From NCBI GenBank assembly GCA_963789955.1, contig CAWBMV010000015.1:192001-256000 (forward strand): a stretch of 64,000 bases of DNA, in the 5' to 3' direction. This document shows positions 4,858-25,164 of the stretch, piece by piece. The stretch comes from an uncultured Candidatus Rokubacteria bacterium. GTDB lineage: Bacteria; Methylomirabilota; Methylomirabilia; Rokubacteriales; CSP1-6. The notes below the pieces were generated by a model that worked only from the letters and a program-made list of their open reading frames with translations, did not search any database and had not been told where the DNA came from. The stretch's first letter is position 1. Every line of letters starts with the position of its first letter. A program made the position numbers and the translations under genes.

Positions 4858-5682
4858 ATGACTACCTCGCGCAGAAGCCTCTGCATCGTGTCGCGCGATC
4901 CGTTGCAGTGCAGCGAGCTGGTCCTGAGCCTGCAGGCTTCGCTGGATCCTGATGACGAGGTCGAGATCGTCATGGATCGCCGGCGTGCGGGGGACGTGTT
5001 CGACACGAAATCCGGAGCACCCGCGGCGGTGTCCGTCGAGCGCCGCCACAATCCGGACGTCGATCTCGCAGTGAGGACCAAGGGCTTCGCGATCGTGCCG
5101 GCCGTGCCGATGACGTCTCGCCGTCGGGAGGAGCCCGACGCCGAAGAGCGCGCGCGTTTCGAGAACATCCTGAGCTTCAAGCGCCGGCACGAGTCACGAT
5201 CGGGGCGGGTCGTCGGTGACGCCGGCGCCGTCATGGTGGCGCTCATCCTGGCGCCTCCCCCGAACGGATTTTCCGCTCGCGTCCTCCGTGATGTGCCGTC
5301 GTCAGCGGAAGTGACTCGGCCTGAGGCCTCGAGCCCGGAACCCCGGCTCGGTCCGGCCGATCCATCCGTGGCGCCCGGCGCGTCCGGGCTCACCCCATCG
5401 GCGTCGCACGTCCCCAGCGCCGGGACCGCGGCTCTCACGCGGCCGAGTCCGGCGAAATCCGCGGTGACGCGGACCGGGGATCCATCGAGCGCGAGCGGCG
5501 CGATCGAACTCTACGCGGCCCGCGTCGGGGACGCGACCGAGCGCGTCGTGTCGAAAGCCAAGGATCTGATCGATCGCGTCAAGAGCGAAGTGATCGGCAG
5601 CGCCCCGATGAACGTCGGGCCAGAGCCGCCGGCACGCACGGTTCCGATCACCGGCAAGCGTCGTCCCGCCGATTCTCCGTAG
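4858..5682 (+). CDS. Paralogue of the preceding DRR-domain protein (hypothetical)
   Basis: LCIVSRD...VEIVMDRR...VERRHNPDVDLAVRTKGFAIVPA...EERARFENILSFKR aligns with the 3627 protein. Confidence 0.7.
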   Translation: MTTSRRSLCIVSRDPLQCSELVLSLQASLDPDDEVEIVMDRRRAGDVFDTKSGAPAAVSVERRHNPDVDLAVRTKGFAIVPAVPMTSRRREEPDAEERARFENILSFKRRHESRSGRVVGDAGAVMVALILAPPPNGFSARVLRDVPSSAEVTRPEASSPEPRLGPADPSVAPGASGLTPSASHVPSAGTAALTRPSPAKSAVTRTGDPSSASGAIELYAARVGDATERVVSKAKDLIDRVKSEVIGSAPMNVGPEPPARTVPITGKRRPADSP

Positions 5683-9014: not shown

Positions 9015-9539
9015 CTAGCCCGTTGCCGCCTGCGCGGACGGCTCACTGGCGACGCGTGTCAGCGGCCGCTTGATGCCCGCGCGATTGACCCAGTACGAGC
9101 AGACCTGGGCGTGCGCGGTGACCACCGTGGTGAGATCGCTCCCGCAGAGCGGGCAGGGGAACATGCCGGGCTCCGAGCGCGAGATCCAGCCGAGCCGGTA
9201 CGTGTTCTGGCATCTCTGGCAGGGAACGATGTGCTGGCTGCAGCACAGGAACAGGATCGCCTTCGAGTCCGGATCGTCGAAATCGACCTTCGCCGTGGTG
9301 CGGGGAACCGCGATCCACCGATCGACCTTCAGCTCCGCGTCTCCGTCGAGCCGGGTTCGTCGATCGCCACGGCGCCGATCGGGACGGTAGGCACCGTCCG
9401 TCGCGCGCCGGTCCTTGATCCGGCGGTCGACGATCACCTCGACCGTCGCGTCATCCGCGAACGTGTGGCTCAGCGACCGACACGCATCCTCTCCACTTCT
9501 CGGGACCACGATCAGGATCGAGCGCCCACCGTCGTGCAT
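9015..9539 (-). CDS. DRR-motif domain fused to a Cys/His-rich putative two-zinc domain
   Basis: VEVIVDRRIKDRR...DRRRGDRR followed by CCSQH, CQRC, CPLC, HAQVC; AAGGAG RBS before ATG9539. Confidence 0.7.
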   Translation of the reverse strand: MHDGGRSILIVVPRSGEDACRSLSHTFADDATVEVIVDRRIKDRRATDGAYRPDRRRGDRRTRLDGDAELKVDRWIAVPRTTAKVDFDDPDSKAILFLCCSQHIVPCQRCQNTYRLGWISRSEPGMFPCPLCGSDLTTVVTAHAQVCSYWVNRAGIKRPLTRVASEPSAQAATG

Positions 9540-9610
9540 GGCCTGACTCTCCTTAGGTGAGCACAAAGCTTACTCCGAAGGCGTCGGGAAACCAGCAAGA
9601 ACTATTGGCA

Positions 9611-9678: not shown

Positions 9679-10068
9679 CTATCTCGCCCAGGCGCGATAG
9701 ACCGTGCCGACCGCCGCGCGGAGCGCGGTGCGGACCGCATCGTTGTCCGCCTGCGGCTCGCCGAGTAGCACGATGAAACCCACGGGAGTGCTTCCGAGAA
9801 ATGCGGTGCCGCTCACGCTGGCGAACTGCGCCATCGGAAACGTGCCGCGTCGAAGCTGGGGACCGCGCAGCTCGAGCTCGCGTCCGAGCGTCGCGGCGAG
9901 CGCGGACAGCGGCTCCGCCTCGACTTCGCGCGGAAGATCGGCGGCGATCACGAGGCCGTCGGGCGCGACGACGAGTCCTCCCGTGATGTGCTCGAGCTTC
10001 ATGAGCTCCGCGAGCAGCGCGCGAAGGTCGCGTCCGAGCGCCGGGCGCGCGGCGACGGCGGTGCTCAC
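9679..10068 (-). CDS. Stand-alone roadblock/LC7 (MglB/MglC-like) protein
   Basis: LAELMKLEHITGGLVVAPDGLVIAADLP...LSALAA roadblock signature; GTGA overlap with the upstream gene. Confidence 0.85.
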   Translation of the reverse strand: MSTAVAARPALGRDLRALLAELMKLEHITGGLVVAPDGLVIAADLPREVEAEPLSALAATLGRELELRGPQLRRGTFPMAQFASVSGTAFLGSTPVGFIVLLGEPQADNDAVRTALRAAVGTVYRAWAR

Positions 10069-10942
10069 GCGAGCTCCGAGCGGCAGCTGCCCCACACACG
10101 CTCCAGGTGGGAGACCGCGGTCGCGGCCGTCACGTCGCGATCGAACGCCAAGGTGAGCAGCGCCGCGTCATCGGTGCGGAGGTACGTCGTCTCCGCGGCG
10201 CCCTCGATCACCGCGTGGCGCAGCGGACCGAATCCGGCTCGCGCGAGTACCGCGGTCGCGATGCGCGCGAGCTTCACCGCGCGGGCGGCGACCGCTTCGG
10301 TCCGAGGTCCGCGCGGCTCGGCGAAGACGAGGGTCGCGTCCGGTCGCATGAACAGTGCTTCGCGGCTTTCGGTCGGCAGCTGCAGACGATCGGCGGGTGT
10401 CGCAGCCTTCGCCGCCGGCGCCTGCGTCGCGGCCGGTGTCGTTGGCCGTCGTCACCGCCGGGATCCTCGCCGGTGTCGCGATCGGTATCGCCGCCGGCAC
10501 GACCACCGGTGTCGCCGCGCGCTTGGGGTCGGCGCTCGGCGCCAGATCTCGCGTGACATCCAGGAGGGCGCGTGCCTCGGGAAAGTCGGGATAGCGCGCC
10601 AGCGCTCGCGAAAGCAGGTCACGACAGGTCTTCGCCTCACCGTCCTCGAGCGCGAGGCGCGCAAGCCCCAGCAGGGCTCGGGGTTGAGTCGGCTCGAGCG
10701 CGAGAACTCGCTCGAACGATGTCCGCGCCTGGCCGCTTTCACGCAGGGTCATGTGGAGCGAGCCCGGCGAGCAGGTGGCCGACGACGCTGCCGGGCTCCC
10801 GGATCAACGCGTCCGCCACGAGCTCGGCCGCGTCCTCGAAGCGCCCTTCGTCCCGGAGGCGTTGCGCCTGTCGGAACATCTGGGCGCTCGTCGGCTGCCG
10901 CCGCCTGCCCCCGAGCCGGTGCCAGATCCGCGCGAAGACCAT
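10065..10942 (-). CDS. TPR-repeat protein with C-terminal degenerate roadblock-like domain; two frameshifts (about 10760 and 10400)
   Basis: GRFEDAAELVADALIREPGS, ARTSFERVLALEPTQPRALLGLA, LSRALARYPDFPEA TPR motifs; C-terminal LARAGFGPLRHAVIEG...LLTLAF; joined from ORFs 10739..10942, 10168..10752 and 10065..10349. Confidence 0.7.
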
Positions 10943-11050
10943 GACGCATTCTCAGACTTTCAAAATCTTCGCCACGTGGCTTTGACGCGCCTTCGCGCCT
11001 GCCCTGTCGCGTGCTTGACGAAGACGAGTCACCCTGGCACGACACGCCAT

Positions 11051-11085
11051 TGACAGAAGTTGTCATCGAAACGGACCAGTTGTCA
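11051..11085. promoter_or_regulatory. Candidate enhancer (bEBP) site: TGACA-N5-TGTCA palindrome plus direct repeat AGTTGTCA x2, 20 bp apart
   Basis: AGTTGTCA at 11058-11065 and 11078-11085; about 85-120 bp upstream of the sigma-54 site. Confidence 0.5.
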
Positions 11086-11168
11086 CGAAGGCCGGTTCGC
11101 GCGGGCGCCAAGTCGCCTTACTGCCGCGTTTGTTCGAGCGTAAAGCCGCGCCCCACCGACGCTCGCGC

Positions 11169-11184
11169 TGGCAGATGGGTTGCA
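11169..11184 (+). promoter_or_regulatory. Sigma-54 promoter TGGCAG-N5-TTGCA for the chemosensory/Mgl operon
   Basis: Near-consensus -24/-12 element with exact spacing, 55 bp before ATG11239, with a GGGAGG RBS in between. Confidence 0.7.
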
Positions 11185-11238
11185 CCGAGGCACATATGGC
11201 GGACACGCCGGCAGAACGCCACGGGAGGCCTGCGTCTG

Positions 11239-11601
11239 ATGCCCAAGGTGATGGTGGTCGACGACGCCTATTCGGAGCTTCAGGTCATGGAGACCATTCT
11301 CCGGTCGGCCGGGTACGACGTCCTGACCTACCTGGACGGAGACCAGCTGGAGGAGAAGATCGTCAAGGAGCGGCCCGACGTCGTGCTGCTCGACATCGTG
11401 ATGCCCAAGCGCAACGGCTTCGACGCGCTTCGCGGCGTACGCCGGGACGAGCGCACCAAGCAGGCGCGCGTGATCGTGGTGAGCTCGAAGAACCAGGACA
11501 GCGACCGCGTCTGGGGCATGCGGCAAGGCGCGGACGAGTACCTCGCGAAACCCTTCACTCCCGATCAGCTGCTGGCGCTCGTCCGGCGGTTCCTCCGATG
11601 A
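11239..11601 (+). CDS. Single-domain response regulator, PilH/CheY-like
   Basis: VMVVDD, PDVVLLDIVMP, VSSKNQDSDRVWGMRQGADEYLAKPF (PilH-type signature). Confidence 0.9.
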   Translation: MPKVMVVDDAYSELQVMETILRSAGYDVLTYLDGDQLEEKIVKERPDVVLLDIVMPKRNGFDALRGVRRDERTKQARVIVVSSKNQDSDRVWGMRQGADEYLAKPFTPDQLLALVRRFLR

Positions 11602-12062
11602 CGACGAGCCTGCTCGACCCCGCGGCGGTCCGGGCGTGCGTGTTCGCGCTCGCCGGTCAGCCGTTCGCGATCGACGTCACCCAGGTGCGGGAGGTGGCGA
11701 TCTTCGAGGAGTGGACCACGGTGCCGCTGGCGCCGCCGCATCTCGTGGGTGTCGCCAATCTACGCGGCGACGTCGTGCCGATCGCGGACGCCCGGGCCGT
11801 GCTCGGGCTTGCGGCGCGCCGGGGCGCGCGCAAGGTGTCGACCTTGATCGTGGAGGCCGAGGGATTCGAGGTGGCGCTCGTCATCGACGGCGACGTCAGC
11901 CTCGAGGCCTTCGGCGGCATCGTGACCCTCGACGAGTCGAGCCCGCAGCCGCACGCGCGGTGGGCGCTCGGCTTCTTGCCGGATGGCGAGCGGCTCGTCC
12001 CGCTGCTCGATCCGGGTCGGCTTCTGCGCGCGCTGAGAGAAGCGCAGCGGGAGGAGGAATGA
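11598..12062 (+). CDS. cheW: CheW-family coupling protein (PilI-like)
   Basis: FAIDVTQVREV...TTVPLAPPHLVGVANLRGDVVPI; ATGA overlap with the REC gene. Confidence 0.9.
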   Translation: MTTSLLDPAAVRACVFALAGQPFAIDVTQVREVAIFEEWTTVPLAPPHLVGVANLRGDVVPIADARAVLGLAARRGARKVSTLIVEAEGFEVALVIDGDVSLEAFGGIVTLDESSPQPHARWALGFLPDGERLVPLLDPGRLLRALREAQREEE

Positions 12063-12079
12063 ATGACGAGGAGGGCGGC

Positions 12080-13385
12080 ATGACGATGAAGCGGCGGACG
12101 GTGCTCAAGGTGCTCTCCGGGGCCGTGGCGGGCAGGCGTTCTCGGCCGGAACCAGCGAGCCTGGGGCCAGACGCCCGTCTCCAAGGTCGTCGATCTGCGC
12201 GGCACGCCCGGGGTGAGCGCCCGGGACATCAAGATCGGGATGAGCGCCGCGTTCAAGGGCTCCTCGGCCGGCCTCGGCATCGAGCTCTACCGCGGCGCGC
12301 TGGCCTACTACTCCGAGGTCAACCAGCGCGGCGGCATCCACGGCCGCTCGATCTCGGTCGTGGCGCTCGACGACGGCTACGAGCCGACGCCGTGCATCAA
12401 GAACACGATCGACCTCGTCGAGCGCGAGCAGGTGTTCTTCCTCTCGAACTACGTCGGCACGCCGACCCTCACGCGCGCCCTGCCGGTGATCAAGCGCTAC
12501 GCCGACCGCCAGGTGATCCTCGTCGGCAACTTTACCGGCGCTCAGCCGCAGCGCGAAGAGCCCTACCTCGACCAGGTGTTCAACATCCGCGCCTCCTACC
12601 GCCAGGAAATGATGGCGCTGGTCGAGCGGCTCTGGCAGACGGGTGTCCGCAAGTTCGGCGTCTACTATCAGATCGACGCCTACGGGCGCAGCGGCACCGA
12701 CGGCGTCGCGCGCGGCCTCGCGCAGCGCGGGGCGCGCATCGCCGCCGAGGCCACCTACGTCCGCGGCGCCACGTTCGAGGATGACATGACTCCGGCCGTG
12801 CAGGCCCTCCGGCAGGCCGGCGTCGAGGCGGTCCTGTGCACGGGCGCCTATCAGGGCTGCGGCGCGTTCATCCGGACGGCGCGCGATCACGGTTGGGCCG
12901 TACCCATCTCGAACGTATCGTTCGTCGGCTCCGAGGCGATGCTGAGCCTTCTCATGCGCCACGGGCAAGCGAGCGGGCGTGACTACACGCAGGCGCTCGT
13001 CAACTCGCAGGTGGTGCCGAGCTACGACGACGTGAGCCTGCCCGGCGTCGTGGAGTACCGCACGCTGATGGAGAAGCACAACCCGCAGGTGCCGGACGCG
13101 CTGCGCGACGCCAAGCAGGCGCCCGAGCAGCTGAGCTTCCGAAGCCTCGAGGGCTTCGTCAACGCCCGCGTGATCGTCGAGGGCCTGCGCCGCACCGGGC
13201 CGAACCCGACGCGCACGGCCTTTCGGCAGGCGCTGGAAACGCTCAAGAACTTCGACCTCGGTATCGGAGCGCCTCTCACGTTCGGACCGGAACGACATCA
13301 GGGACTCGACAACGTGTACTTCACCAGAGTGGTGAACGGTCGATGGGCCCCCATTACAGACTGGGCGGCGGCGGTGAAAGCATGA
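12080..13385 (+). CDS. Periplasmic binding protein (Leu/Ile/Val-binding type 1 fold) with twin-arginine signal; frameshift near 12135
   Basis: [11 protein letters not shown]at-like leader; [11 protein letters not shown]...[19 protein letters not shown]...VGTPT...FNIRASY. Confidence 0.85.
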
Positions 13386-15154
13386 GCAAGCGAACCGTTC
13401 GACTCGGCCTGCTCGGAAAGATCATCCTGTTCCTGACGGTGACCCTCGTGCCGCTGGCGGCGATCACCTGGTGGATCTCGATCCGCGCCTTGACCACGAA
13501 CCTGACGGACGAGTTCACCTCGAAGGGGACCGCGATCGCCAAGAGCCTAGCGAGCTCGGGCGTCGATCTGCTGCTGACGCGCGATGCGTCGACGGTGCAG
13601 GCGATCGTCGACCAGTTCGCCGCCATCAACGGCGTCAAGTACGTCATCGTGTACGACCCGCAGAAGACGCTCGTGGCCCACACCTTCTCGCCGCTGGTGC
13701 CGGCCGGCATCGTCGAGCGAAACCTGGTGCCGGGCGAGGTGGCGCAACAGGTTCGGGACGTCGCGTACGCCGATCCGGTCACCGGTGTCGTCCAGCAGAT
13801 CATCGACATCGGCGTGCCGGTGCTGGCGGGCCAGCTCGGAACGGTGCGCGTGGGGATGGACCGCTCGATCATCACCGCGGCGGCCGCCAGGTCCGGCCAG
13901 AACCTGCTGCTCGTATTCGGCGGCGTCGCGCTGCTGGCGGTCCTCGCCGGCGCGGTCTTCGCCCACCAGATCACCAAGCCGGTCATCCAGGTCGTCAAGG
14001 TCGCCGAGCGAGTCGGACAGGGCGACCTCTCGAGGCTGGTCACCGTGAAGTCGCACGACGAGATCGGGCAGCTCGCCGCCACGTTCAACGACACCGTGGT
14101 GCGCCTGCGTGCCCTGGTCCAGACCGAGACGGAGCGCGACGAAGAGAAGCGCAAGCGTGAGGAGCTGCAGCGCAACATCACGCGCTTCCTCGACACCGCC
14201 ACCGAGATCGCGCAGGGCGACCTGACCAAGCGCGGTCAGGTGACGTCCGACGTGCTCGGCAGCGTGGTCGACGCGATCAACGTGATGGTCGGCGAGCTGG
14301 CGACCATCATCAACGACGTGCGCGACACCGCGCAGCAGGTCCTGACGAGCGCGACCGAGATGATCGGCGCCATGGAGTCGACGGCCGGCGGCGCCCAGAC
14401 GCAGTCGCGTGAAGCGGTGGGCGTGAGCGACGCCATGGAAGGCCTGAGCCGCTCGATGCGGCGGGTCGCCGAGAACGCGGAAGCCTCCGCGGCGGCCGCG
14501 AAGCTGACGCTCGACTCCGCCACCAAGGGCGAGCACGCGGTGCGCGCCAGCCTCGCCGGCATGCAGCGCATCCGGGGCGAGGTGCAGGGCATCTCGAAGA
14601 AGGTCAAGAGCCTGGCCGATCGCTCGCTCGAAATCTCCGAGATCGTGAACACGATCGAGGACATCGCCTCGCAGACGAATCTGTTGGCGCTCAACGCCGC
14701 CATCGAGGCGGCGGGCGCCGGCGAGTCCGGCCTGCGGTTCGCGGTCGTCGCCGAAGAGGTTCGCAAGCTGGCCGAACGCTCCGGCAAGGCGGCCAAGGAC
14801 ATCGTCGTGCTGATCAAGTCGGTGCAGGCCGAGACGCAGCAGGCGGTCGTCGCGATGGAAGAGGGTACCCGTGAAGTCGAAGCCGGCTTCAAGGTCACGG
14901 TCGAGGCCGGCGAGCGCCTGCATCAGATCGGCGAGATCTCCCAGAAGTCCGCCGCGCTGGCCATCGAGATCTCGGAGGCGACGCAGGACCAGGTGCGAGG
15001 CGTCGAGGGCGGCGCGGTCGCGGTCCAGTCGATCGCGGGCGTGGCGGTCGAGACCGAGAAGGCGGTTCTCGAGACGCGCAAGACGATGGACCAGATGGTC
15101 CGGGTGGCCGAGGCGCTCACGGCGAGCCTCGCGCGCTTCAAGCTGGCCACCTAG
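13382..15154 (+). CDS. Methyl-accepting chemotaxis protein (2 TM, periplasmic sensor, HAMPs; PilJ-like)
   Basis: [40 protein letters not shown] signalling hairpin; [16 protein letters not shown] overlap with the binding-protein gene. Confidence 0.95.
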
Positions 15155-15181
15155 GCGCTCGATCGACTGGAGGCGGGTTGC

Positions 15182-18104
15182 GTGGCTGACGGCGATCGGC
15201 AGTTTCTCCTGAGTGTCTTCCTGATGGAGGCGTGGGATACCCTCGCCGCCGTCGAGGAGGGCCTCGCCACGCTCCGCACTACGTCGGATCCGACCGCGGT
15301 GGTCGAGCATCTGGCGGTCGTGACCCACCGGCTCCGTGGCTCGGCGGCTCTCAGCGGATTTCCACAGGTCGCGGGCCTGGCCACCGCCATGGAGGAGGCG
15401 GTCGAGCGAGTGGCCGCCACGCCCGCGGACGGCGACCGCCGCTCGCTGGGGGCGCTCGCCGACATGGTGTTCTGGCTCAAGACGGCGCTCGACGTCATCG
15501 GCGAGACGGGTGTCGAGGACGCCGAGGCCATCGCGGAATCGCTCGCGGGTCTGGCCACGTCGACGCCGCGCGTGCCGCGTGACGAAACGTCGCGGCGGCT
15601 CGCCGAGCTCGACCGGTTCTTTACCGACCAGGCGGACGTCCTCGAATACTTCGTCCCGGAGGCCATCGAGCACCTCGAAGCGATGGCGCAGTCGCTGATC
15701 GCGCTGGAAGGCGAGGGCTCGACCGAATCGGAGATCGCCGGGCTGTTCCGCGCGGTCCACACGCTCAAGGGCGCCGCCTACACCGTCGGCTGCGGAATGA
15801 TCGGCGACCTCGCCCACCGGGTCGAAGACATGCTCGGCGAGGTTCGTGAGCGCCAGCGCCCGCTCGATCGCGCCGCGATCGAGACCGTGTTCGCCGGCCT
15901 CGATGCGCTGCGGCTTCTCGTGCGAAGCGGTGAGGATCGCGCCGATACGCGCGCCGCCGCCTACGAGCACGCGATGGCGCTGCTCGACGCCTTGCCGGCC
16001 ATCGGCGCGCCGAGCGCGCAGATGGCGCCGCAGCAGAGCGTCGAGGCGGCCGTCGCACAGATCGCCGCCGCCACGGCGGACGCCGTCGCGCCGAGCCAGC
16101 CGGCGGTGGCGGAGACTCCCCAGCGCCTGGATCCAGTCGTCGCTGCCGAACGCCTCGCCGGCGCGACCGAGCGCGTCGAACCGGCTACGCGCGGTCCGGA
16201 GCGCCGGTCTTCTCGCGACGCCGCCGCCCGCAGGGTGCGCCCGAGCATCCGCGTCAGCCTCGATCGGCTCGACGCGCTGATGAATCTCGTCGGCGAGCTG
16301 GTGATCACGCGAAGTCGTCTCGAGCGTCATCTGGGTCAGCTCGAGCAGGCCGGTGAGCTCCTGTCGTTTACCCAGTCACGCATGACCCAGACCGTCGCCG
16401 AGTTCGAGTCGAAGTACGCCGACCGGATGGTGCCGCCGGTCCGGCCCCAGGGCGGCGGCTCGCTCGAGCCGGGGGTCTCTCCGCTGGGAGAGTTCTTCGA
16501 CGAGCTCGAGTTCGACCGCTACGACGATTTCAATCTGCTGGCCCGACGCGTCGGCGAGATCTCGAGCGACCTCACGGAGATCCAGCACGAGCTGACCGGG
16601 CTGGTGCGAGTCGTCCGCGAGGACGCCGGCGGCGTGCAGCGGCTCAGCGGCGAGCTGCGCGGCCAGATCACGCGCGCCCGCATGGTGCCCGTCGGCCGTC
16701 TGTTCGCGCCGTTCGTGCGGATGGTCCGGGACGGCTCGCGGGCGGCCGGCAAGAGCGTCGTGCTCGAGGTCCGGGGTGAGACCGTCGAGCTGGACACCAC
16801 GATCGTCGAGCTGATGGCCGATCCGCTGATCCACCTCGTCCGGAACGCCATCGCCCACGGCATCGAGCCGGAAGAGGTGCGCCGCCGCGAGGGCAAGGCG
16901 CCGCAGGGCACGATCCATCTGGGCGCCGCGCACAAGGGCGGCTCGATCTACATCGAGGTGGCCGACGACGGTCGCGGCATCGACGTGGAAGCGGTCGGTG
17001 AGGCGGCGCGGCGTGGCGGATTCGTCACGGCGGAGACGCTCGCGCGTCTCGGCGAGCGCGACATCCTCGATCTGATCTTCCTCCCCGGCCTGACGACCGC
17101 GAGCTCGGTGACGACGGCCGCGGGCCGTGGCGTCGGCATGGACGTCGTGCGCACGAACATCAGCCGTCTCGGCGGCGAGATCGAGGTCCAGACCGAGGCG
17201 GGCCGTGGGACGCGCTTCCGGATTCGGCTGCCGCTGACCGTCGCCATCTCCGATGCGCTCATGGTGAACGTCGGCGCCCAGACCCTGGCGATCCCCGTGC
17301 CGTCCGTGAAGGGCGCGATCAACCTGCGAGCCCGAGGACGTCCGCACCGTCGACGGCGTGGAGTCGGTCGAGATCGAGGGCGAGAGCGTCGACCTCGTGC
17401 GCCTCGACCGCGTGCTGCAGATGCCGGCGCGCGCCGCGGGCGGCTCGCTGTCGATCGTCACGCTGAGAACCGGGCGCAAGACCCTGGCGGTGGTCGTGGA
17501 CGAGTTCCTGAACAAGGAAGAGATCGTCATCAAGAACCTCGGCGCATTCCTCCAGGGCATCGGACCCTTCTCGGGCGCGACCGTCACGGGACAGGGGCGC
17601 GTCATCTTGCTGCTCGACTCGATGAAGCTCCTCGAGATGAGCACCGCCGGGCCCTGGCCGCGCACGGCCGAGATCCGCCGCGAGCCCGAGGCGGTGGCGG
17701 CGCCGGCGTCCGACGCGAGGCGTCGCGTTCTGCTCGTCGACGACTCGGTCAGCGTGCGGAAATTCGTCGGCGGCATGCTCGAGCGCGCGGGCTTCCACGT
17801 CGTCGCGGCGCGAGACGGCGCCGAGGCGCTCCAGCAGCTGGCCGAGCAGTCGGTCGACGTCATCGTCACCGACCTGGAAATGCCGCGCCTCAACGGCTAC
17901 GAGCTGATCCGCGGCCTCAATCGCGAGCCGACCACGTGCGACCTGCCGGTGGTCGTCCTCACCACGCGCGCCGGCGCCAAGCACGTGAACCTCGCGCGCG
18001 AGCTGGGCGTGGAGCACTACGTCGCCAAGCCCGTCGACGAGGCGAGCTTCGTCCAGTTGATCGAGTCGCTCGCCGTCGCGGCGCCGGCGCGGGCGGGAGC
18101 CTGA
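15182..18104 (+). CDS. cheA: Hybrid CheA (ChpA/FrzE-like): 2 Hpt, dimerisation, HATPase, CheW, C-terminal REC; frameshift near 17325
   Basis: HRLRGSA and HTLKGAA Hpt motifs, RVSLDRLDALMNLVGELVI, HLVRNAIAHGIE, DDGRGID, GRGVGMDVV, VLLVDDSVSVRK...TDLEMP. Confidence 0.93.
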
Positions 18105-18111
18105 GGCGCCG

Positions 18112-18900
18112 ATGCCGCGCGTCATCCTGATCGACCCGGATCGTACGGCGCTCGCGGCGCTGCAGGCCGCGCTCGGACAGGCGGGCTTCAGTGATGTGCT
18201 CGCCGTGACCAGCGGCTCCTTCGCGCTCACGATGCTCGAGCGGAATCGGCCCGACCTCATCGTGAGCCGTGTGGGCGTGCCCGACATCGACGGCTACGAG
18301 CTGTGCTCGATCGTCCGCAAGGACCCCTTGATGACCGGCGTGCTGTTCCTCCTGCTGGCGAGTCCGGGTGACGAGGCGGCCGCGACCATGCTCGAGGACA
18401 AGCCGGATCAGACGCTCGCGGGCGACTTGCCGCTGACCGCGATCGTCTCCGAGGTGGCCACCCTGCTCGGACGCGGCAAGGCGGCGGCGCCGGTCCCGAC
18501 ACAGGAGCCGATCGCTCCGGCCGCGCAGCCCGACGGGGCTCACGGTCTGCGGGGGTCGCTGACCGTGATGGAGCTTCCGGACATCACCCAGGCGATCGCG
18601 CTCGGCGGCAAGACCGGCCAGCTCGTCGTGACTCTGTCGGCGGGGCGCGGCTCCGTGTTCTTCGATCGCGGCCGGGTCGTGCACTCGGAATTCTTCGGAC
18701 TCATCGGCGAGACGGCCTTCCAGGCGCTCCTGGTCGCCGCGCACGGTGAGGCGAACGGCAGCTTCGCGTTCAACCCGCTGGACGCGGCGGCGGCCAACGG
18801 CGTGAAGACGATCCACCGGGATCTGAAGCAGCTTCTACTGAGCGCCGCGGCTGGGATCGACGAGGGCCGCGCAGACGCGGCCGTGGCACCCATCGCCTAG
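18112..18900 (+). CDS. Pseudo-receiver + DUF4388 (PatA/PATAN-like) protein
   Basis: REC fold with LIDPD and PDLIVSR (phospho-Asp replaced by Arg); LRGSLTVMELPDITQAIALGGKTGQL...GRVVH...GSFAF DUF4388 pattern. Confidence 0.8.
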   Translation: MPRVILIDPDRTALAALQAALGQAGFSDVLAVTSGSFALTMLERNRPDLIVSRVGVPDIDGYELCSIVRKDPLMTGVLFLLLASPGDEAAATMLEDKPDQTLAGDLPLTAIVSEVATLLGRGKAAAPVPTQEPIAPAAQPDGAHGLRGSLTVMELPDITQAIALGGKTGQLVVTLSAGRGSVFFDRGRVVHSEFFGLIGETAFQALLVAAHGEANGSFAFNPLDAAAANGVKTIHRDLKQLLLSAAAGIDEGRADAAVAPIA

Positions 18901-18912
18901 GAGGGCGAGCTG

Positions 18913-19818
18913 ATGCAGAAGGTCCTCGTGGTGGACGACAGTCTGAGCGTCAGGAAAGTGGTCGAGAAGGCGCTCGAGGGCCGCGGGCTTCAAGTGCTCG
19001 CCGCCGCGTCCGGCGCCGAGGCGATCCAGATGATCGATCGCGACCGGCCCGACGTCGTGATCTGCGACGTCATCCTGCCCGACAAGGACGGCTATCAGGT
19101 CTGCCAGTACGTCCGTGCGCATCCCGCCATCGGCGCGACACCGGTTCTCCTGATCTCCGGGATCGACAACGGCACCGTCCAGGCGCGGGCCGCCGAGGTG
19201 CGATCCGACGAAGTGATGTTCAAGCCGTTCGGCGTCGAGGACCTGGTGCGGAAGATCGACACCTTGCTCGCCAAACGCTCCAACGGCGTCAAGCCATCCA
19301 CCGGGCCGCCGACCCCCGCGCCGGCGTCTTTGACCGTACCGGCCTTGACCCCCGCGCCGGCGCCGACGTCTGCGCCGGCATCCGCGCCGGTGCCGATCTC
19401 TGCGCCGGCCACCACACCGGCGCCCGCACCGGCGCCCGCGGCGTTTGCGCCCGCGGCGCACGATCAAAGTCTCAAGCAGAGGCTTCAAAGCCTCGCCGGC
19501 ACGCCCGGAGTCCGCTTCGTCGTGCTCACCGATCGCGAGGGGTTTCTCATCGAGACGGCCGGGGATCTGGCGCCGGAAGCCGACGAAGTGGCCGGCGCGC
19601 TCGCGTCGTGTCTCGCCGAGGCGTCCGACGGCATCGGCCGCGAGCTCGGCCAGGGCCAGCTGGTCGGAACGATCCTCGAATACGAGGCGGGCACCTTGCT
19701 GCTGCACGGCGTGGGGCCCTCGGCGTTGCTGGCCGTCCTGGTCCGCGATCAAGGCGCGCTCGGGAAGGTGCGCTACTACGTGAGAAAAATCGTGCCGGAG
19801 CTCGCGCGGGCTCTCTGA
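18913..19818 (+). CDS. Response regulator: REC, Pro/Ala linker, roadblock/LC7 fusion
   Basis: VLVVDDS, PDVVICDVILP, FKPF; PAPAP linker; LAGTPGVRFVVLTDREGFLIE...IGRELGQGQL...LGKVRY. Confidence 0.85.
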   Translation: MQKVLVVDDSLSVRKVVEKALEGRGLQVLAAASGAEAIQMIDRDRPDVVICDVILPDKDGYQVCQYVRAHPAIGATPVLLISGIDNGTVQARAAEVRSDEVMFKPFGVEDLVRKIDTLLAKRSNGVKPSTGPPTPAPASLTVPALTPAPAPTSAPASAPVPISAPATTPAPAPAPAAFAPAAHDQSLKQRLQSLAGTPGVRFVVLTDREGFLIETAGDLAPEADEVAGALASCLAEASDGIGRELGQGQLVGTILEYEAGTLLLHGVGPSALLAVLVRDQGALGKVRYYVRKIVPELARAL

Positions 19819-22092
19819 TGGCTCTGCCGCGCGCCTCGCGAGCGAGGTTGGTCTGGGCGCTCGAGCTGTCGCTCGGACTGGAGCTCTACGCCTGCGCGGT
19901 CCTCGCCCTGCACGCGCGTGGGCTCAGGGCGACTCCACTCGACGCCTCGCTCGCGCTCGTGCTGCCCGCGCTGGTGATCCCGCCGGTGTTCTACGTGCTC
20001 GTCGCGCTGGTCATCGTGCGTCCCCTCGCGCTCGTGCCGCTGATCGGCGCCGCGGCCGCGATGTGCGGGCTTCACGGATCGCTCGTCGCGGCGACCGGGC
20101 GCACTGTTCATGATCCCCGACCTCCTCGACTACGGCGCGGCCGTCGCCTTCGCGCTCTGGGGCTCGCCGGCCGTCACACTGCTCCAGCTGACGGCGACGC
20201 CGCTCGTGTTCGCCCGTCTCCGGCCGCTGGTGTCGGCGCCCCGTCCGCCGCGCGGCGACGCACGCGATGCACGGCCCGCAGTGACGCAGCGCCGGGTCGA
20301 GGCGCCAGCGATGACCGGCGCGCCACGGCCGCTGGCGCCCGCGGAGGCGGCGGCCGCCCCCGCGCTCCACCCGAATGCGCCGGCGCCGTCTCTCCGGCCG
20401 TCCACGGCACCGCCCGTTCCCGCGACCGCATTCGTCTCGCCGCTGCGAGCGGCCGCCGGCCACTCGACCACGTCGGCTCCGTCCGCCGCGCACACGGCCG
20501 CCTCGGCGCCGTCGACACCGACTGCCGTTACCCGGTCTGTGGTGTCGCCACTTCCTGCGGCCACCCGCCAGCCGGTCGCGAAGACACCGCCTGTTGTTGC
20601 GATGGCCGAGGCGAAAAGTGCGCCCGCGACGCCGGCCGAACCCACGCGAGGGGAGGCGCCATCGAAGCGGGCGCTCGACTGGGAAGAGCCGATGATCCGA
20701 GTTCCGTTCGTCCGGATCGCGGACCAGCTCCCGGTCGAGATGTTCGCGCGCGGTCCGGAGGGCCTGAAGGACACCCTGCGGCCGGGCGTGTCGCTGCTCG
20801 TGCCGAGAAAGCTGCTCCTGCCGCATCTGGGTGACGGTCTCGCGCCCGTGAAGTGGGACGTCGTCGCCGATCAGTTCCCGCTCGACGAGCTCGCCATGAC
20901 TCACGAGGAGATCGCGGAGCGCTTGCCGGACGGCTCGCTGCTCCTGCCGCTCGACGAAGTGATACCGCAGATCCCGCCCGAGCTGCTGACGCTCTCGACG
21001 CCGCCGGTCGACGTCCATCAGATCGAAGAATTTCCCGAGCCGTTCCAGCCGCACGCTCCTGCGCAACCCGATGCCGCCGGCGAAGAGACTCCCGCGGCCC
21101 ACGTCGCCCACGTCGAGTTCGCGGAGGAGCCGGAGGCTCCGGCCAATGCCGCCGAGCACGTCGATGAGGCGGAGACGGTCGACTCCGACGTCGTGGCCGC
21201 GGATCAGTCGGTCCAGCCCGAGCTGGAAGACTCGGAGCCAGAGCGTCCGACATACCAGGCGGCTGCGCTCGCACTGCCGGAGCCGGAGCGGCATCCCGAG
21301 CCCGTCAGGAGCGATCAGGCGCGACGCATCGCGGCGCTGCTGACGCCGCTGCTGAACGGGCTGGAGATCGGCCAGCGGGATGGCGCCGGCACGACGGTCG
21401 TGACGGTGATCGCGCCGACGCTCAGCGAAGACTCCGTCGTCCGGACGGCGATGCGGATCGTGCCGTTCCTCAGCGATGCGCGCTTGCCGGAGCCGGTGAC
21501 CCAGGCCACCTTGACCGCGGCCGGCACGACGATCGTGCTGACTCCGTTCGGGTCGCCCGACACCGGTGGCGCGCTCCTCGTGACGGCCGTGGCCTCGCGC
21601 GCGGGACTGGCCTGGCTGGAGCGCCTCTCGCGGACCGCGGCGCGCGAGGCGCAGATCGAGGCCGGCAACGGCAAGCACACGGGCCCCGAGAACGACTCCG
21701 GCGCTGGGCCGGAGCTGCGCGCGGCCATCGTGCCCCCCGGCGTGCGCGAGCTGGCCGACTCCTTGACGGCGTTCGGCACGGTGGCGCCGACCCTGCTGCG
21801 CGACCGGGCCGGGGCGCTCAGCGCGTGTCTGTTCCTTCCGACCTCACTCGATGCGGTCCCGCTGGCGAGGTTTGCGCGCGACCTGCACGCGGCCCTCGAG
21901 GGCACCGAGATCGGCCGGATCGCATCCGTCATCCTGAAGCTCGGTAGCCATCGGGTCGTGCTGCGCGCGATGGACGGCGTGTCCGGCACCGTGACGATGC
22001 TGGTCGGCGGCGGGCGAATCGATCGGCCGGGGCTGGCGCGGATCGAGCTCGACCGGGCCGCGACGCGGCTCGAGGCCCTGGTGGGAGGCTGA
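19818..22092 (+). CDS. Large membrane-anchored protein: about 4 TM helices, Pro-rich linker, LPxxxI/VxxQ(L/F/I)P repeats, acidic linker, two degenerate roadblock-like C-terminal domains; frameshift near 20098
   Basis: Hydrophobic N-terminus in ORF 19608..20834 from ATG19818, continued in ORF 20110..22092; C-terminal RAGLAWLERL and RPGLARIEL roadblock-like ends. Confidence 0.65.
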
Positions 22093-22095
22093 GCC

Positions 22096-22713
22096 ATGTC
22101 GGTGATCAACTACGCGAACCGGGTCATCGATTTCAAGATCGTCTACTACGGGCCCGGCATGGCCGGGAAGACGGCCAACCTGCAGTACATTCACCGCTGT
22201 CTGCCGAACGCCAATCGAGGGAACATGATCTCCCTCGCGACCGGCGACGACCGGACCATCTACTTCGACTTCCTGCCGGTGTCGGCGCTCACCGTGCGCG
22301 GATTCAAAACGCGCTTTCAGCTCTACACGGTGCCCGGTCAGGTCCAGTACAACGCGACGCGACGGCTGGTGCTGCGCGGCGCCGACGGCCTGGTGTTCGT
22401 GGCCGACTCCCAGTTCGAGCGTCTGCGCGAGAACGTGGAGAGCTTCCGGAATCTGGAGACGAATCTCCGCGAGTACGAGTCGACGCTCGACGAGATCCCG
22501 TACGTGCTCCAGTACAACAAGCGCGATCTGCCGAACCTGGCGCCGCTGACCTATCTCGAGTTCGTGCTCAATCGGCGGGCGTCGCGCGTGCCGTTCTTCG
22601 AGGCGTCGGCCATCGATGGCAAGGGGGTCTTCGACACACTCAACACCGTGTCGCGTATGGCGCTCGCGAGCGAGTTCGGCGTCGGACGGGAGAAGCGCAA
22701 TGAAGCCTCGTAA
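22096..22713 (+). CDS. mglA: MglA-family Ras-like small GTPase
   Basis: KIVYYGPGMAGKTANL, DDRTIYFDF, QLYTVPGQ, GADGLVFVADSQ, QYNKRDLP. Confidence 0.95.
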   Translation: MSVINYANRVIDFKIVYYGPGMAGKTANLQYIHRCLPNANRGNMISLATGDDRTIYFDFLPVSALTVRGFKTRFQLYTVPGQVQYNATRRLVLRGADGLVFVADSQFERLRENVESFRNLETNLREYESTLDEIPYVLQYNKRDLPNLAPLTYLEFVLNRRASRVPFFEASAIDGKGVFDTLNTVSRMALASEFGVGREKRNEAS

Positions 22714-23182
22714 TACGGTCATCCAGCAGCAGGACGCGGCGCGGATTCACGAGATCCTGTCGCGCTTCCTCGGCGACTCGAGCGCCGCCGAAGCCCTTCT
22801 GATCGACCGCGGCGGCCAGCTCCTGGCGATGGACGGTGACGCCCAGGCGCTCGACGCGGTGTCGATCTCGGCGCTGGCGGCCGCCGCCTTCAGCTCCACC
22901 GCCGCGATGGCCCAGCTGCTCGGCGAGCCCGAGTTCAGCGTGCTGTTCCACGAGGGCACCAAGCGCTCGATCCACGTCTCGACGGTGGACGACGAGGCCA
23001 TCCTGCTCGCGATCTTCGACGAGCGGACCACGGTGGGCATGGTGCGGCTGTTCGCCACCGAGGCGAGCCGCGCCGTCGGTGCGGTGCTGGGCGAGGCCCG
23101 CGCCCGCCCGAAGCCCCAGGCCGAATTCGCCGCTCCGCTGAACGACGCCGAGTCGCGCGCCGCGTGGACACCCCCGAGCTGA
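22700..23182 (+). CDS. mglB: MglB-family roadblock protein (MglA GAP)
   Basis: ALLIDRGGQLL...SISALAAAAF...LLGEPEFSVLFHEG...IFDERTTVGMVRL. Confidence 0.92.
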   Translation: MKPRNTVIQQQDAARIHEILSRFLGDSSAAEALLIDRGGQLLAMDGDAQALDAVSISALAAAAFSSTAAMAQLLGEPEFSVLFHEGTKRSIHVSTVDDEAILLAIFDERTTVGMVRLFATEASRAVGAVLGEARARPKPQAEFAAPLNDAESRAAWTPPS

Positions 23183-23183
23183 T

Positions 23184-23950
23184 ATGCGGCAGGTGCGAGT
23201 CGGCGGACGCTATGACGAAAGCCGCGAGCAGCGGCTGTGGGCGGCGCTCCTCGGGCTGATCGCGCTCGCGACCGTGGGCATCGCGGTCGTCATCTGCGAT
23301 GCCGGCAGCGGATTCTGCCATCCGACCCTGCTGCGGCTGGGCGCCGGGTTCATCGCCGTCGTGATCGCGGTCCGGCTGGGCCGGCCCGTGACGCGACGGC
23401 TGCGAAGCGTGCGTAACGGCCGTCGGGGCGAGCGCCTGGTCGCCGATCTCCTGCGCGGCCTACCGGACGACTACTGGCTCGTCAACGACGTGTCGCTGGG
23501 ATTGGCGCGCGGCACCATCGATCACGTGCTGATCGGGCCATGCGGCGTCGTCGTGATCGATACGAAAGATCTCGCGGGCCACATCCGATGCTGGGAGAAC
23601 AGCTGGTCCGTCAACGGATATCGCCAGGCCGACATCAGCCAGCGCGTCAACTCCTGGGCGTGCGCCGTCCGATACTTCCTGAGCGAAAAGCACCCGGACC
23701 TGGCCGACCTCGGCGCTCCGGTGGGTGGAGTCGGTGGTCGTGTTCACCCATCCGCTCTGCCACGTCGAAGCGAGTGACACGCGGGCCGACGGTCGTCCGC
23801 TACTCCCAGCTGTATCAAGCGGTGGTCGAGCTCTCGCGCAAGCATCACATGGCGTCGTCGACGGCGAGCCTGCTCGCACGGACCCTGGCGAAGTCGCAGG
23901 CGGACGACGGCGCCGTGGTCGAGGGCGATCCTCTCACATCCGTGTCTTGA
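23184..23950 (+). CDS. Membrane-anchored NERD (nuclease-related) domain protein; frameshifts near 23715 and 23785
   Basis: Two TM helices then GRRGERLV...[11 protein letters not shown]...[17 protein letters not shown]. Confidence 0.8.
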
Positions 23951-25164
23951 TCCGCTCGATCGCCTCTTCGGTCTGCGCGCGTGAGCCGAACGCGGTGAGC
24001 CGGAAATAGCCCTCGCCGCTCGGCCCGAAGCCGGCGCCCGGCGCGCCGACCACATTCGCTCGCTCGAGCACCCGATCGAAGAAATCCCAGGACGCGACCG
24101 AGCGCGGCGTGCGGAGCCAGATGTACGGCGCGTTGCGGCCGCCGTAGACGGTGAAGCCCGCGGCCGCGAGCCCGGCGCCGATGATCCGCGCGTTCTCCAT
24201 GTAGAAGTCGATCAGCGCCCGCACTTGCTTCTGCCCCTCGGGCGTGAAGACGGCCGCCGCGGCCTTCTGGATGATGTAGGGCGGCCCGTTGGATTTCATC
24301 GCCGTCCGGCGAGTCCAGAGCGCGTTGAGGGTCATCGTCTTGCCGTCGGCGGCCCGCCCCCGCAGCTCCTTCGGCACGATCGTGTAGGCCAGGCGCATCC
24401 CCGTGAAGCCGGCGTTCTTCGAGAAGCTGCGGCACTCGATCGCGACCTCGCGCGCGCCGTCGATCTCGTAGATCGAGTGCGGAACCTCCGGGTCGACGAT
24501 GTAACCCTCGTAGGCGGCGTCGTACAGGATGACGGCATCCTCCGCGCGCGCGTACTCGACCCAGCGGGCGAGCGCCTCGCGCGTCGCCACGGCACCGGTC
24601 GGGTTGTTCGGATAGCAGAGGTAGATCAGATCCACGTGCCGGTCGGGCAGCGCCGGCTGGAAGCTGTTCTCGGCGGTGCAGGGCAGGTAGACGATGCCCG
24701 CGTAGCGGCCCGCTCTCGTCGGCGCGCCCGCTGCGCCCGGCGACGACGTTGCTGTCGGCATAGACGGGGTAGACCGGATCCATGAGCGCGACGACGCAGT
24801 CCTGCGCGAAGATCTCCTGGAGGTTCGCGCTGTCGCTCTTGCCGCCGTCGCTCACGAAGACCTCGTCGACGGCGATCTTCACGCCGCGCGAGCCGAAGTC
24901 GTGGGCCGCGATGTCGGCGCGCAGGAACTCGTAGCCGACGTACGGGCCGTAGCCCTTGAAGGTCTCGCGCCGCGCCATGTCGTCCGCGGCCTCGTGGATC
25001 GCGCGAACGACGGCCGGCGGCAGGGGCTGGGTCACGTCGCCGACGCCCAGGTCGACCAGGCGAACGTCGGGGTGCGCGTCGGTGAACACCTTCGTCCGGC
25101 GCCGGATCTCGGCGAAGAGATAGCTCTGATTGAGGTTCAGGTAGAACTCGTTGAATCGCGGCAC
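23934..25164 (-). CDS. dapL: LL-diaminopimelate aminotransferase; frameshift near 24710
   Basis: [64 protein letters not shown]. Confidence 0.95.

Follow-up and report, generated by a model that had tools for sequence, protein, structure and literature searches.

In a 64,000-nucleotide stretch of contig CAWBMV010000015.1 (GCA_963789955.1; hereafter the window), taken from an 87%-complete genome of an uncultured Rokubacteria bacterium, eleven co-oriented plus-strand genes spanning positions 11239-23950 and separated by gaps of -14 to +27 bp encode a chemosensory pathway, a membrane scaffold protein and the small GTPase MglA with its partner MglB. A divergent pair of minus-strand genes, encoding a TPR-roadblock protein and a stand-alone roadblock protein (RB0), lies about 300 bp from the start of the first of them, a receiver (REC) gene. 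A first-pass annotation had proposed this gene inventory, a run of closely spaced or overlapping genes and the divergent pair upstream, all of which were confirmed, the inventory by domain searches of the proteins of the window. The operon is real, conserved and undescribed in the literature searched, and it is assembled from known parts on a known theme. What is new here is a core shared with Deinococcus, together with a series of natural deletions that divides the operon into this core and an MglA module. The MglA switch is an optional addition to this core, and among relatives it has disappeared on more than one occasion.

The core consists of the first seven genes. A single-domain, PilH-like response regulator (11239..11601; Response_reg) is followed by CheW (11598..12062; PF01584, E 4.9e-21), by a Leu/Ile/Val-type periplasmic binding protein (~12080..13385; Peripla_BP_6, E 3e-47; PDB 4kv7, E 2e-48), which is the probable ligand donor of the methyl-accepting chemotaxis protein (MCP) encoded next (13382..15154; two transmembrane segments, sCache_3_2, HAMP and MCPsignal domains), and by a CheA (15182..18104; 969 residues in a relative) with the domain order Hpt-Hpt-dimer-HATPase-CheW-REC. 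The last two genes encode a pseudoreceiver joined to a DUF4388, or PATAN, domain (18112..18900; PF14332, E 5e-14) and a receiver connected by a Pro/Ala linker to a roadblock domain (REC-roadblock; 18913..19818; Response_reg, Robl_LC7 45 bits). The signalling domain of the MCP has 14 more residues per arm than that of Escherichia coli Tsr, and therefore 40 heptads (40H).

The same seven genes occur in identical order in D. aetherius (NZ_AP026561.1), with identities of 60% for the binding protein at the same position, 46% for the MCP, 38% for CheA and 49% for the first receiver, and with the REC-roadblock fusion (own profile, E 2.6e-9). In D. radiodurans (NZ_OV024759.1) the core is present without the binding protein and with three MCPs. 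No mglA lies in either stretch, and the Deinococcus operons differ from the Rokubacteria one in having no scaffold, mglA, mglB, TPR-roadblock, RB0 or pilB gene in the stretches compared; we found no functional study of them. In the CheA tree, the Rokubacteria sequences are sister to those of Deinococcus (support 99/98). REC-roadblock clusters were also found in Acidobacteriota and Chloroflexota (Atlas scores 0.96-0.98). Plasmids searched with MglA gave a single record, from D. ficus, and chemotaxis genes are absent from the 8 kb around it; mglB-mglA lies on one plasmid of this species and a chemosensory CheA on another. The plasmid search with the full REC-roadblock protein was swamped by generic receivers.

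The distribution of the two parts was surveyed in 251 genomes of the phylum Methylomirabilota, 124 of which have an MglA at E <= 1e-15. The MglA of the operon belongs to a clade of 78 genomes at 67% identity or more (FastTree support 0.999, for 13 of these versus 12 others), and the REC-roadblock output domain matched 102 genomes, 98 of which were kept at E <= 1.4e-18 and four weak ones dropped. In all 59 Rokubacteriales genomes having both genes on the same contig, mglA lies 2.3-4.2 kb downstream of REC-roadblock on the same strand; the 78 clade-mglA genomes further include 12 with the two genes on separate contigs of fragmented assemblies and seven with no kept REC-roadblock match. The full gene order recurs in six genomes of the genus, so that conservation in relatives, which the first-pass annotation had named as a check, is upheld, and an assembly join is rejected. 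Because related genomes are not independent, these counts are not statistical tests. In other families, mglB-mglA follows dnaX-ybaB-recR (six loci directly, one with genes between, two too short to tell), and in a one-contig genome it lies 3.4 Mb from cheA. The TPR-roadblock/RB0 pair shifts its place among relatives (upstream and divergent, downstream on the same strand, or downstream and convergent) and remains in the locus. In certain relatives, cheR, cheB and additional cheW genes are present as well.

Among the 98 REC-roadblock genomes, 69 have both clade mglA and RB0, 20 have neither, seven have RB0 only and two mglA only. The core with REC-roadblock thus occurs without clade mglA in 27, some of these absences being assembly gaps and five contiguous loci being clean deletions. 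REC-roadblock is present in all 17 genomes of the genus. Clade mglA and RB0 occur together in 11 of them and are both missing from the other six, one of which has, on a 4 kb contig, an MglA from a different clade. In five of the six (L023, L024, L025, L042 and L070) the locus is contiguous across the site and the scaffold gene runs directly into the NERD or dapL gene, L023 retaining short remnants of mglA and of the TPR gene. A tree built from five segments for 14 of these 17 genomes places the losses in two well-supported separate lineages, probably with a third (74/84). Within the genus, mglA, mglB and the TPR-roadblock/RB0 pair have hence been lost together at least twice with the core retained, and the REC-roadblock of the genomes without clade mglA is still about 80% identical. 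In family f4, REC-roadblock was found in 11 of 21 genomes and RB0 in none; not one of those 11 has an MglA at E 1e-15, and the six loci read carry core and scaffold without mglAB. The earlier proposal of a self-contained receptor-to-G-protein cascade, with MglA as its obligatory output, finds no support in that form, given these 27 genomes, this family and Deinococcus.

Three further loci of the survey deserve mention. At L021:7800-12700, cheA is cut short and followed by a pilB paralogue and a TPR-roadblock/roadblock pair, the stretch from the end of cheA to mglB being missing. A genome of family f13 carries the operon in its Rokubacteriales form, plus a further MglB-like gene that converges on mglB (L044:1334-2318), possibly by transfer or by bin contamination (8%). 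In families f7 and f10 (L026, L027, L028 and L030), a different chemosensory cluster (cheR, MCP, cheW, REC and a shorter CheA) forms its own clade and is not near mglA.

In the MglA module, mglA (22096..22713) lies 3 bp after the scaffold gene and encodes a Group 1-type small GTPase that matches MglA of Thermus thermophilus (E 2e-70) and Myxococcus xanthus (E 4e-65) and keeps the Group 1 catalytic residues (G1, Arg53, Gln82 and the G4 motif NKRD). The cognate mglB (22700..23182; Robl_LC7), a homologue of roadblock GTPase-activating proteins (GAPs), follows in the order mglA-mglB with a 14 bp overlap; its product matches M. xanthus MglB (E 3e-21) and scores below the cut-off of the NCBIfam MglB model (69.5 of 200). 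No second mglA was found in the genome, in which dnaX-recR lies on another contig. Structure prediction of a complex between MglA and a pair of REC-roadblock output domains (score 0.14, mark 0.34) was evidence neither way. The eleventh gene encodes a membrane-anchored NERD protein (23184..23950; PF08378). Its inclusion as a general member of the operon did not survive comparison, and it was rejected as a core part, because it follows mglB only in this genus. Among the 34 genomes with mglA-mglB and downstream sequence, the next gene is a pilB paralogue in 18, NERD in ten (all of this genus) and a roadblock gene in six; outside the genus, the pilB paralogue comes directly after mglB in 18 of 24 informative genomes, from ten genera. 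NERD is a genus-specific occupant of the site that holds the pilB paralogue in other genera. The three pilB paralogues tested pass the PilB equivalog cut-off (TIGR02538) and have an MshEN domain with an N-terminal extension, and three of the four genomes with such a paralogue that were checked also have a separate, closely related pilB.

Roadblock domains occur in both parts of the locus. One GTPase gene and five genes with roadblock-like domains had been counted in the first-pass annotation, and this count holds: six domains in five genes, three of them recognized by Pfam and two (the TPR protein and the scaffold) by fold. Five domains are clear or fair, and the sixth, a weak match, is probable. 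RB0 (9679..10095, minus strand; the start may be near 10068) matches Robl_LC7 at 24 bits (cut-off 23), and its profile matches the REC-roadblock domain with a probability of 95.8; the REC-roadblock profile is in turn similar to MglB (probability 99.6). The TPR-roadblock protein (~10065..10940, minus strand; about 258 residues in relatives) has TPR_19 repeats, and the C-terminal domain of a relative, modelled by AlphaFold2 with a pLDDT of 91.7, has a roadblock fold (Z 15.6, root-mean-square deviation 2.2, 115 residues aligned to M. xanthus MglB, 6hjm). When the TPR-roadblock profile was compared with PDB sequences, the best 60 of 92 matches were generic TPR proteins, and so no specific link emerged to SgmX, a TPR adaptor that joins MglA to the pilus. 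A second, isolated TPR-roadblock and roadblock pair, about 75% identical and with no chemosensory or mglA genes adjoining, lies at G000:C37:185306-186282 (L037:7307-8280).

The membrane scaffold (19818..22092; about 753 residues in near-identical proteins) has no Pfam match. From hydropathy and an AlphaFold2 model, it is predicted to consist of three to five transmembrane segments, a linker, a 115-residue domain, a second linker and two roadblock-like domains. The last domain reaches Z 6.5-6.8 to MglB, a middling range lowered by the size of the 473-residue model; its best match in the fold search (Z 6.5) aligns 113 residues at a root-mean-square deviation of 3.0, and all eight chains with Z >= 5, among 48,161, are roadblocks. 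The expectation that the accessory domains model as roadblock folds was borne out for this domain and for the tail of the TPR protein. For the second-last domain of the scaffold the best Z is only 4.6, to MglC, with IclR domains close behind. Its secondary-structure elements come in the same order as in a roadblock, and its alignment with the last domain extends over 98 columns (E 0.01). Foldseek returned nothing at E <= 0.001 for the 473-residue model. The middle domain (20677-21030 in the window; about 115 residues, pLDDT ~90) contains an internally repeated beta-helix motif and belongs to no Pfam family; the best 120 of 164 protein matches are close relatives, one named Rokubacteria, and the nearest Atlas clusters (0.79-0.87, low recognition) are hypothetical proteins of Verrucomicrobiota, a lead only. 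It is duplicated in L005, L007 and L034, and absent from the scaffolds of family f4. One sequence (P0094) fuses a shortened REC-roadblock to the scaffold, by natural deletion or misassembly.

Six genes are frameshifted in this assembly, a feature that the first-pass annotation does not mention. Compared with intact relatives, seven breaks correspond to single extra bases, near 10766 in the TPR-roadblock gene, 12134 in the binding protein gene, 17331 in cheA, 20097 in the scaffold gene (for which intact near-identical proteins exist), 23707 and 23787 in the NERD gene, and 24707 in a flanking dapL-like aminotransferase gene (23934-25164, minus strand; a paralogue lies on C34). Contigs from public soil and sediment runs that closely resemble this sequence also lack the first six, the dapL break lying outside the stretch compared. 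The breaks are most likely assembly errors, because they are single bases missing in intact relatives and independent contigs, and true pseudogenisation was rejected on the same grounds. The TPR-roadblock gene has a second frame change in its linker, near 10440-10500. The genome, at its 87% completeness, yields a single copy each of MCP, CheA, MglA and DUF4388 protein, all of them at the operon, and searches of it for CheR, CheB and flagellin found none; the operon itself has no cheR or cheB either. A promoter and terminator scan of the region gave chance-level signals only. Contigs from two RNA runs cover most of the genes, which is not a demonstration of transcription. Elsewhere in the window, two proteins of no known family (9015-9566, minus strand, and 4858-5682, plus strand) have a common VEVIVDRR...RR motif; the first has a Cys-rich, zinc-ribbon-like end and weak paralogues on C1 and C6, and it adjoins the operon throughout the genus, loci without mglA included.

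Several traits of the core proteins bear on the class of the chemosensory system. CheA proteins of the Tfp class have several Hpt domains and a C-terminal receiver, and the CheA of the operon, with two Hpt domains and a C-terminal REC, fits this description. The 40-heptad PilJ-type receptor is a Tfp trait that is common to the ACF class too, and ACF-class (Wsp/Frz-like) systems have CheR and CheB with the operon; here these two genes appear in some relatives only. The MCP is closer to PilJ-type (194 and 157 bits) than to WspA-type receptors (115 and 112 bits). The first receiver, which has its phospho-site Asp in all 38 loci scored, is 45% identical to the second of the regulators in the Acinetobacter pil-chp operon; the receiver of REC-roadblock, which has its Asp in 46 of 46, scores 84 bits to the first of these regulators against 55 bits to the second. 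By gene order, we take the first and second regulators to be PilG and PilH. After Deinococcus, the 40H MCP, CheA and both receivers are closest to Pil-Chp or cyanobacterial counterparts; the position of the pQBR103 receptor in the MCP tree is meaningless, this receptor being truncated in its locus. The pseudoreceiver of the DUF4388 protein lacks the phospho-Asp in all 47 loci scored (Ser in 43, Thr in two, Cys in one, Gly in one), and its receiver comes first and DUF4388 last, unlike the PatA-type arrangement, in which PATAN is N-terminal and the receiver comes after it.

A type IVa pilus cluster, on another contig of the genome, comprises pilB, pilT, pilC, a pilin gene, pilM, pilO and a secretin-type gene, with PilB passing TIGR02538 and PilT TIGR01420. 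Counterparts of the genes for which a genome search had been suggested are thus there, and the view that a type IV pilus is the likely target gains from this complete cluster, from the pilB paralogue after mglB in sister genera and from the distribution of flagellin, which was found in none of the 17 genomes of the genus and in five of the 98 REC-roadblock genomes. At L033:14700-19500, mglA without mglB is followed by a Tad/Flp pilus cluster (TadE, RcpC/CpaB and a secretin).

The closest known systems, besides the Deinococcus operon, are those of the Tfp class (Pseudomonas and Acinetobacter Pil-Chp, and cyanobacterial Tax/Pil with PatA-type regulators), with which the operon has in common a 40H receptor, a multi-Hpt CheA with C-terminal REC, PilG-like and PilH-like receivers, a PATAN domain and type IVa pili in the genome. 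It differs from them in that PATAN is C-terminal to a dead receiver, in that the PilG-like receiver carries a roadblock domain and sits after cheA, and in the addition of a binding protein, a membrane scaffold and a GTPase module. The M. xanthus pathway from Frz to MglA, MglB, MglC, RomR, RomX and RomY likewise combines a chemosensory kinase, a Group 1 MglA with Arg53 and Gln82, MglB, extra roadblocks, a REC-linker-output regulator and a pilus target; here, in contrast, the genes form one string, the order is mglA-mglB (reversed) and the receiver is fused to the roadblock. According to the available part of PMC4316618, mglA of M. xanthus and Bdellovibrio is not near its partners, Group 1 mglA is occasionally beside PATAN genes, and REC-roadblock fusions are mentioned in passing. 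Actinobacterial conservons (CvnA-D) also encode a sensor kinase, a roadblock protein and a small GTPase together, with a classical histidine kinase with LPxR, a GTPase of Group 2 in which the arginine finger is missing, and no response regulator (PMC4316618, in the same part); the CheA array, three receivers and intact Arg53 of the present operon set it outside the conservons. In the literature on MglA, roadblock proteins, chemosensory systems, Rokubacteria and Deinococcus, subscription papers being outside the scope, no description of the operon was found; cases of MglA or roadblock genes next to chemotaxis genes may already be recorded by Makarova et al. (2006) or in the gene neighbourhoods of 449 MglA in supplementary table S2 of PMC4316618. 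The accessible portions of PMC3441718, 10.1101/2022.05.07.491037 and PMC9481161 contain no description of it.

The operon most likely steers type IV pili. More specifically, we propose a Pil-Chp/Tax-like chemosensory system in which an older core acts on type IVa pili and an optional MglA module is attached through roadblock contacts, a reading that in our judgement has an even chance of being correct. A mechanism in keeping with the observed gene content, order, folds, residues and co-loss pattern would start with the binding protein, which may capture an amino-acid-like ligand and present it to the sCache receptor. The array of receptor, CheW and CheA would then phosphorylate the PilH-like receiver, CheA's own REC and the PilG-like REC-roadblock. 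The core output would be independent of MglA: the pseudoREC-PATAN protein could act on PilB and PilC, by analogy with the PATAN domains of Synechocystis, which bind PilB1 and PilC (10.1101/2021.06.11.447907, from the part available), and the phosphorylated REC-roadblock would position or gate it, in Rokubacteria probably by roadblock-roadblock pairing with the scaffold. As an optional output, MglA, MglB, the TPR-roadblock protein and RB0 would form a polarity switch plugged into the same roadblock network. Phosphorylation would shift the site of MglB GAP activity, MglA-GTP would mark the pole of pilus extension, and in most genera the dedicated PilB paralogue encoded next to mglB may serve this output. 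Phosphotransfer to GTPase regulators, as first proposed, is what we infer from the sequences, and the TPR-roadblock protein, if it bridges MglA and the pilus, would resemble SgmX in this respect. A more specific version, which we consider speculative and somewhat unlikely, is that REC-roadblock works as a roadblock switched by phosphorylation, exchanging dimer partners within a scaffold-anchored, hetero-paired (Ragulator-like) network. The chemosensory kinase, of pilus type, would thereby be coupled directly both to a dedicated pilus motor and to the GAP of a Ras-like GTPase.

Several points weigh against the proposed core-plus-module reading. PilM is present in 96 of the 104 good genomes of the phylum, and co-occurrence with pili consequently does not discriminate. 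This genome has no pilB paralogue of the operon type, and its pilus genes are clustered on a different contig. In Deinococcus no scaffold gene follows REC-roadblock, which means that the core does not need one, and the first roadblock-like domain of the scaffold is a weak match. The co-loss is not strict, because the seven genomes that hold RB0 without clade mglA include contiguous loci of genus g21, where three such loci keep mglB and RB0 with no mglA. Neither the CheA tree (five references, long branches) nor a second tree separates a Tfp placement from an ACF one. Finally, the protein contacts, phosphotransfer and motility role are all deduced from genes and models.

It is unlikely that MglA is instead the main output, with phosphorylated REC-roadblock being, or gating, the MglA GAP, and with genomes without mglA using an MglA in trans or carrying a decaying pathway. 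The tight scaffold-mglA-mglB coupling (gaps of 3 and -14 bp), the single MCP, CheA and MglA of the genome and the profile similarity of REC-roadblock to MglB would all fit, as would D. ficus, with the two parts on different plasmids. Against it, REC-roadblock keeps its phospho-Asp in every locus scored and its sequence in genomes of the genus without clade mglA, and in family f4 it occurs with no MglA at the threshold used.

Distinctly unlikely, in our view, is that the pathway, like ACF systems, controls a pilus function other than directed movement (adhesion, cell contact or DNA uptake) or an output unrelated to pili. The cheR and cheB genes of several relatives, the one locus followed by a Tad cluster and the unsettled placement of CheA lend it some weight, as do the spherical cells of Deinococcus, whose surface motility is diffusive (PMC12393216, as far as available). 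No cyclase, transcription factor or other output gene was found in any locus examined, however, and both the receptor and the receivers resemble Pil-Chp more closely than they do Wsp-like systems; in T. thermophilus, loss of MglA/MglB alters the polar location of pili, according to the accessible part of PMC12024867. The chemosensory operon and the MglA module might also be two separate pilus regulators, co-located for co-expression near pilus genes without direct cross-talk. The clean loss of the module with no visible damage to the core, the mglB-mglA loci after dnaX-ybaB-recR, far from cheA, and pilM some 35-85 kb away on the same contig in several genomes are consistent with this; yet order and spacing are held in all 59 cases over many genera, mglA overlaps or abuts the roadblock gene on the core side, and both halves use the same pairing domain, which makes such independence very unlikely.

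Working out the route from the Frz kinase to MglA in Myxococcus took many years of work on scattered genes. In the present lineage, a single operon lists a kinase, a receiver with roadblock output, a membrane scaffold with roadblocks, MglA/MglB and, in most genera, a pilus motor, giving a short set of candidate contacts, and natural deletions separate it into core and MglA module. The roles of REC-roadblock and pseudoREC-PATAN are testable now, since the core is present in D. radiodurans, a cultured species reported to move on surfaces (PMC12393216). If REC-roadblock does swap partners, it would connect a chemosensory kinase directly, at the molecular level, with a small GTPase, and in Deinococcus, Chloroflexota and Acidobacteriota it would also define an output that does not need MglA. 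The operon further provides a candidate steering system for an uncultured lineage that is abundant in soil and for the most part lacks flagellin.

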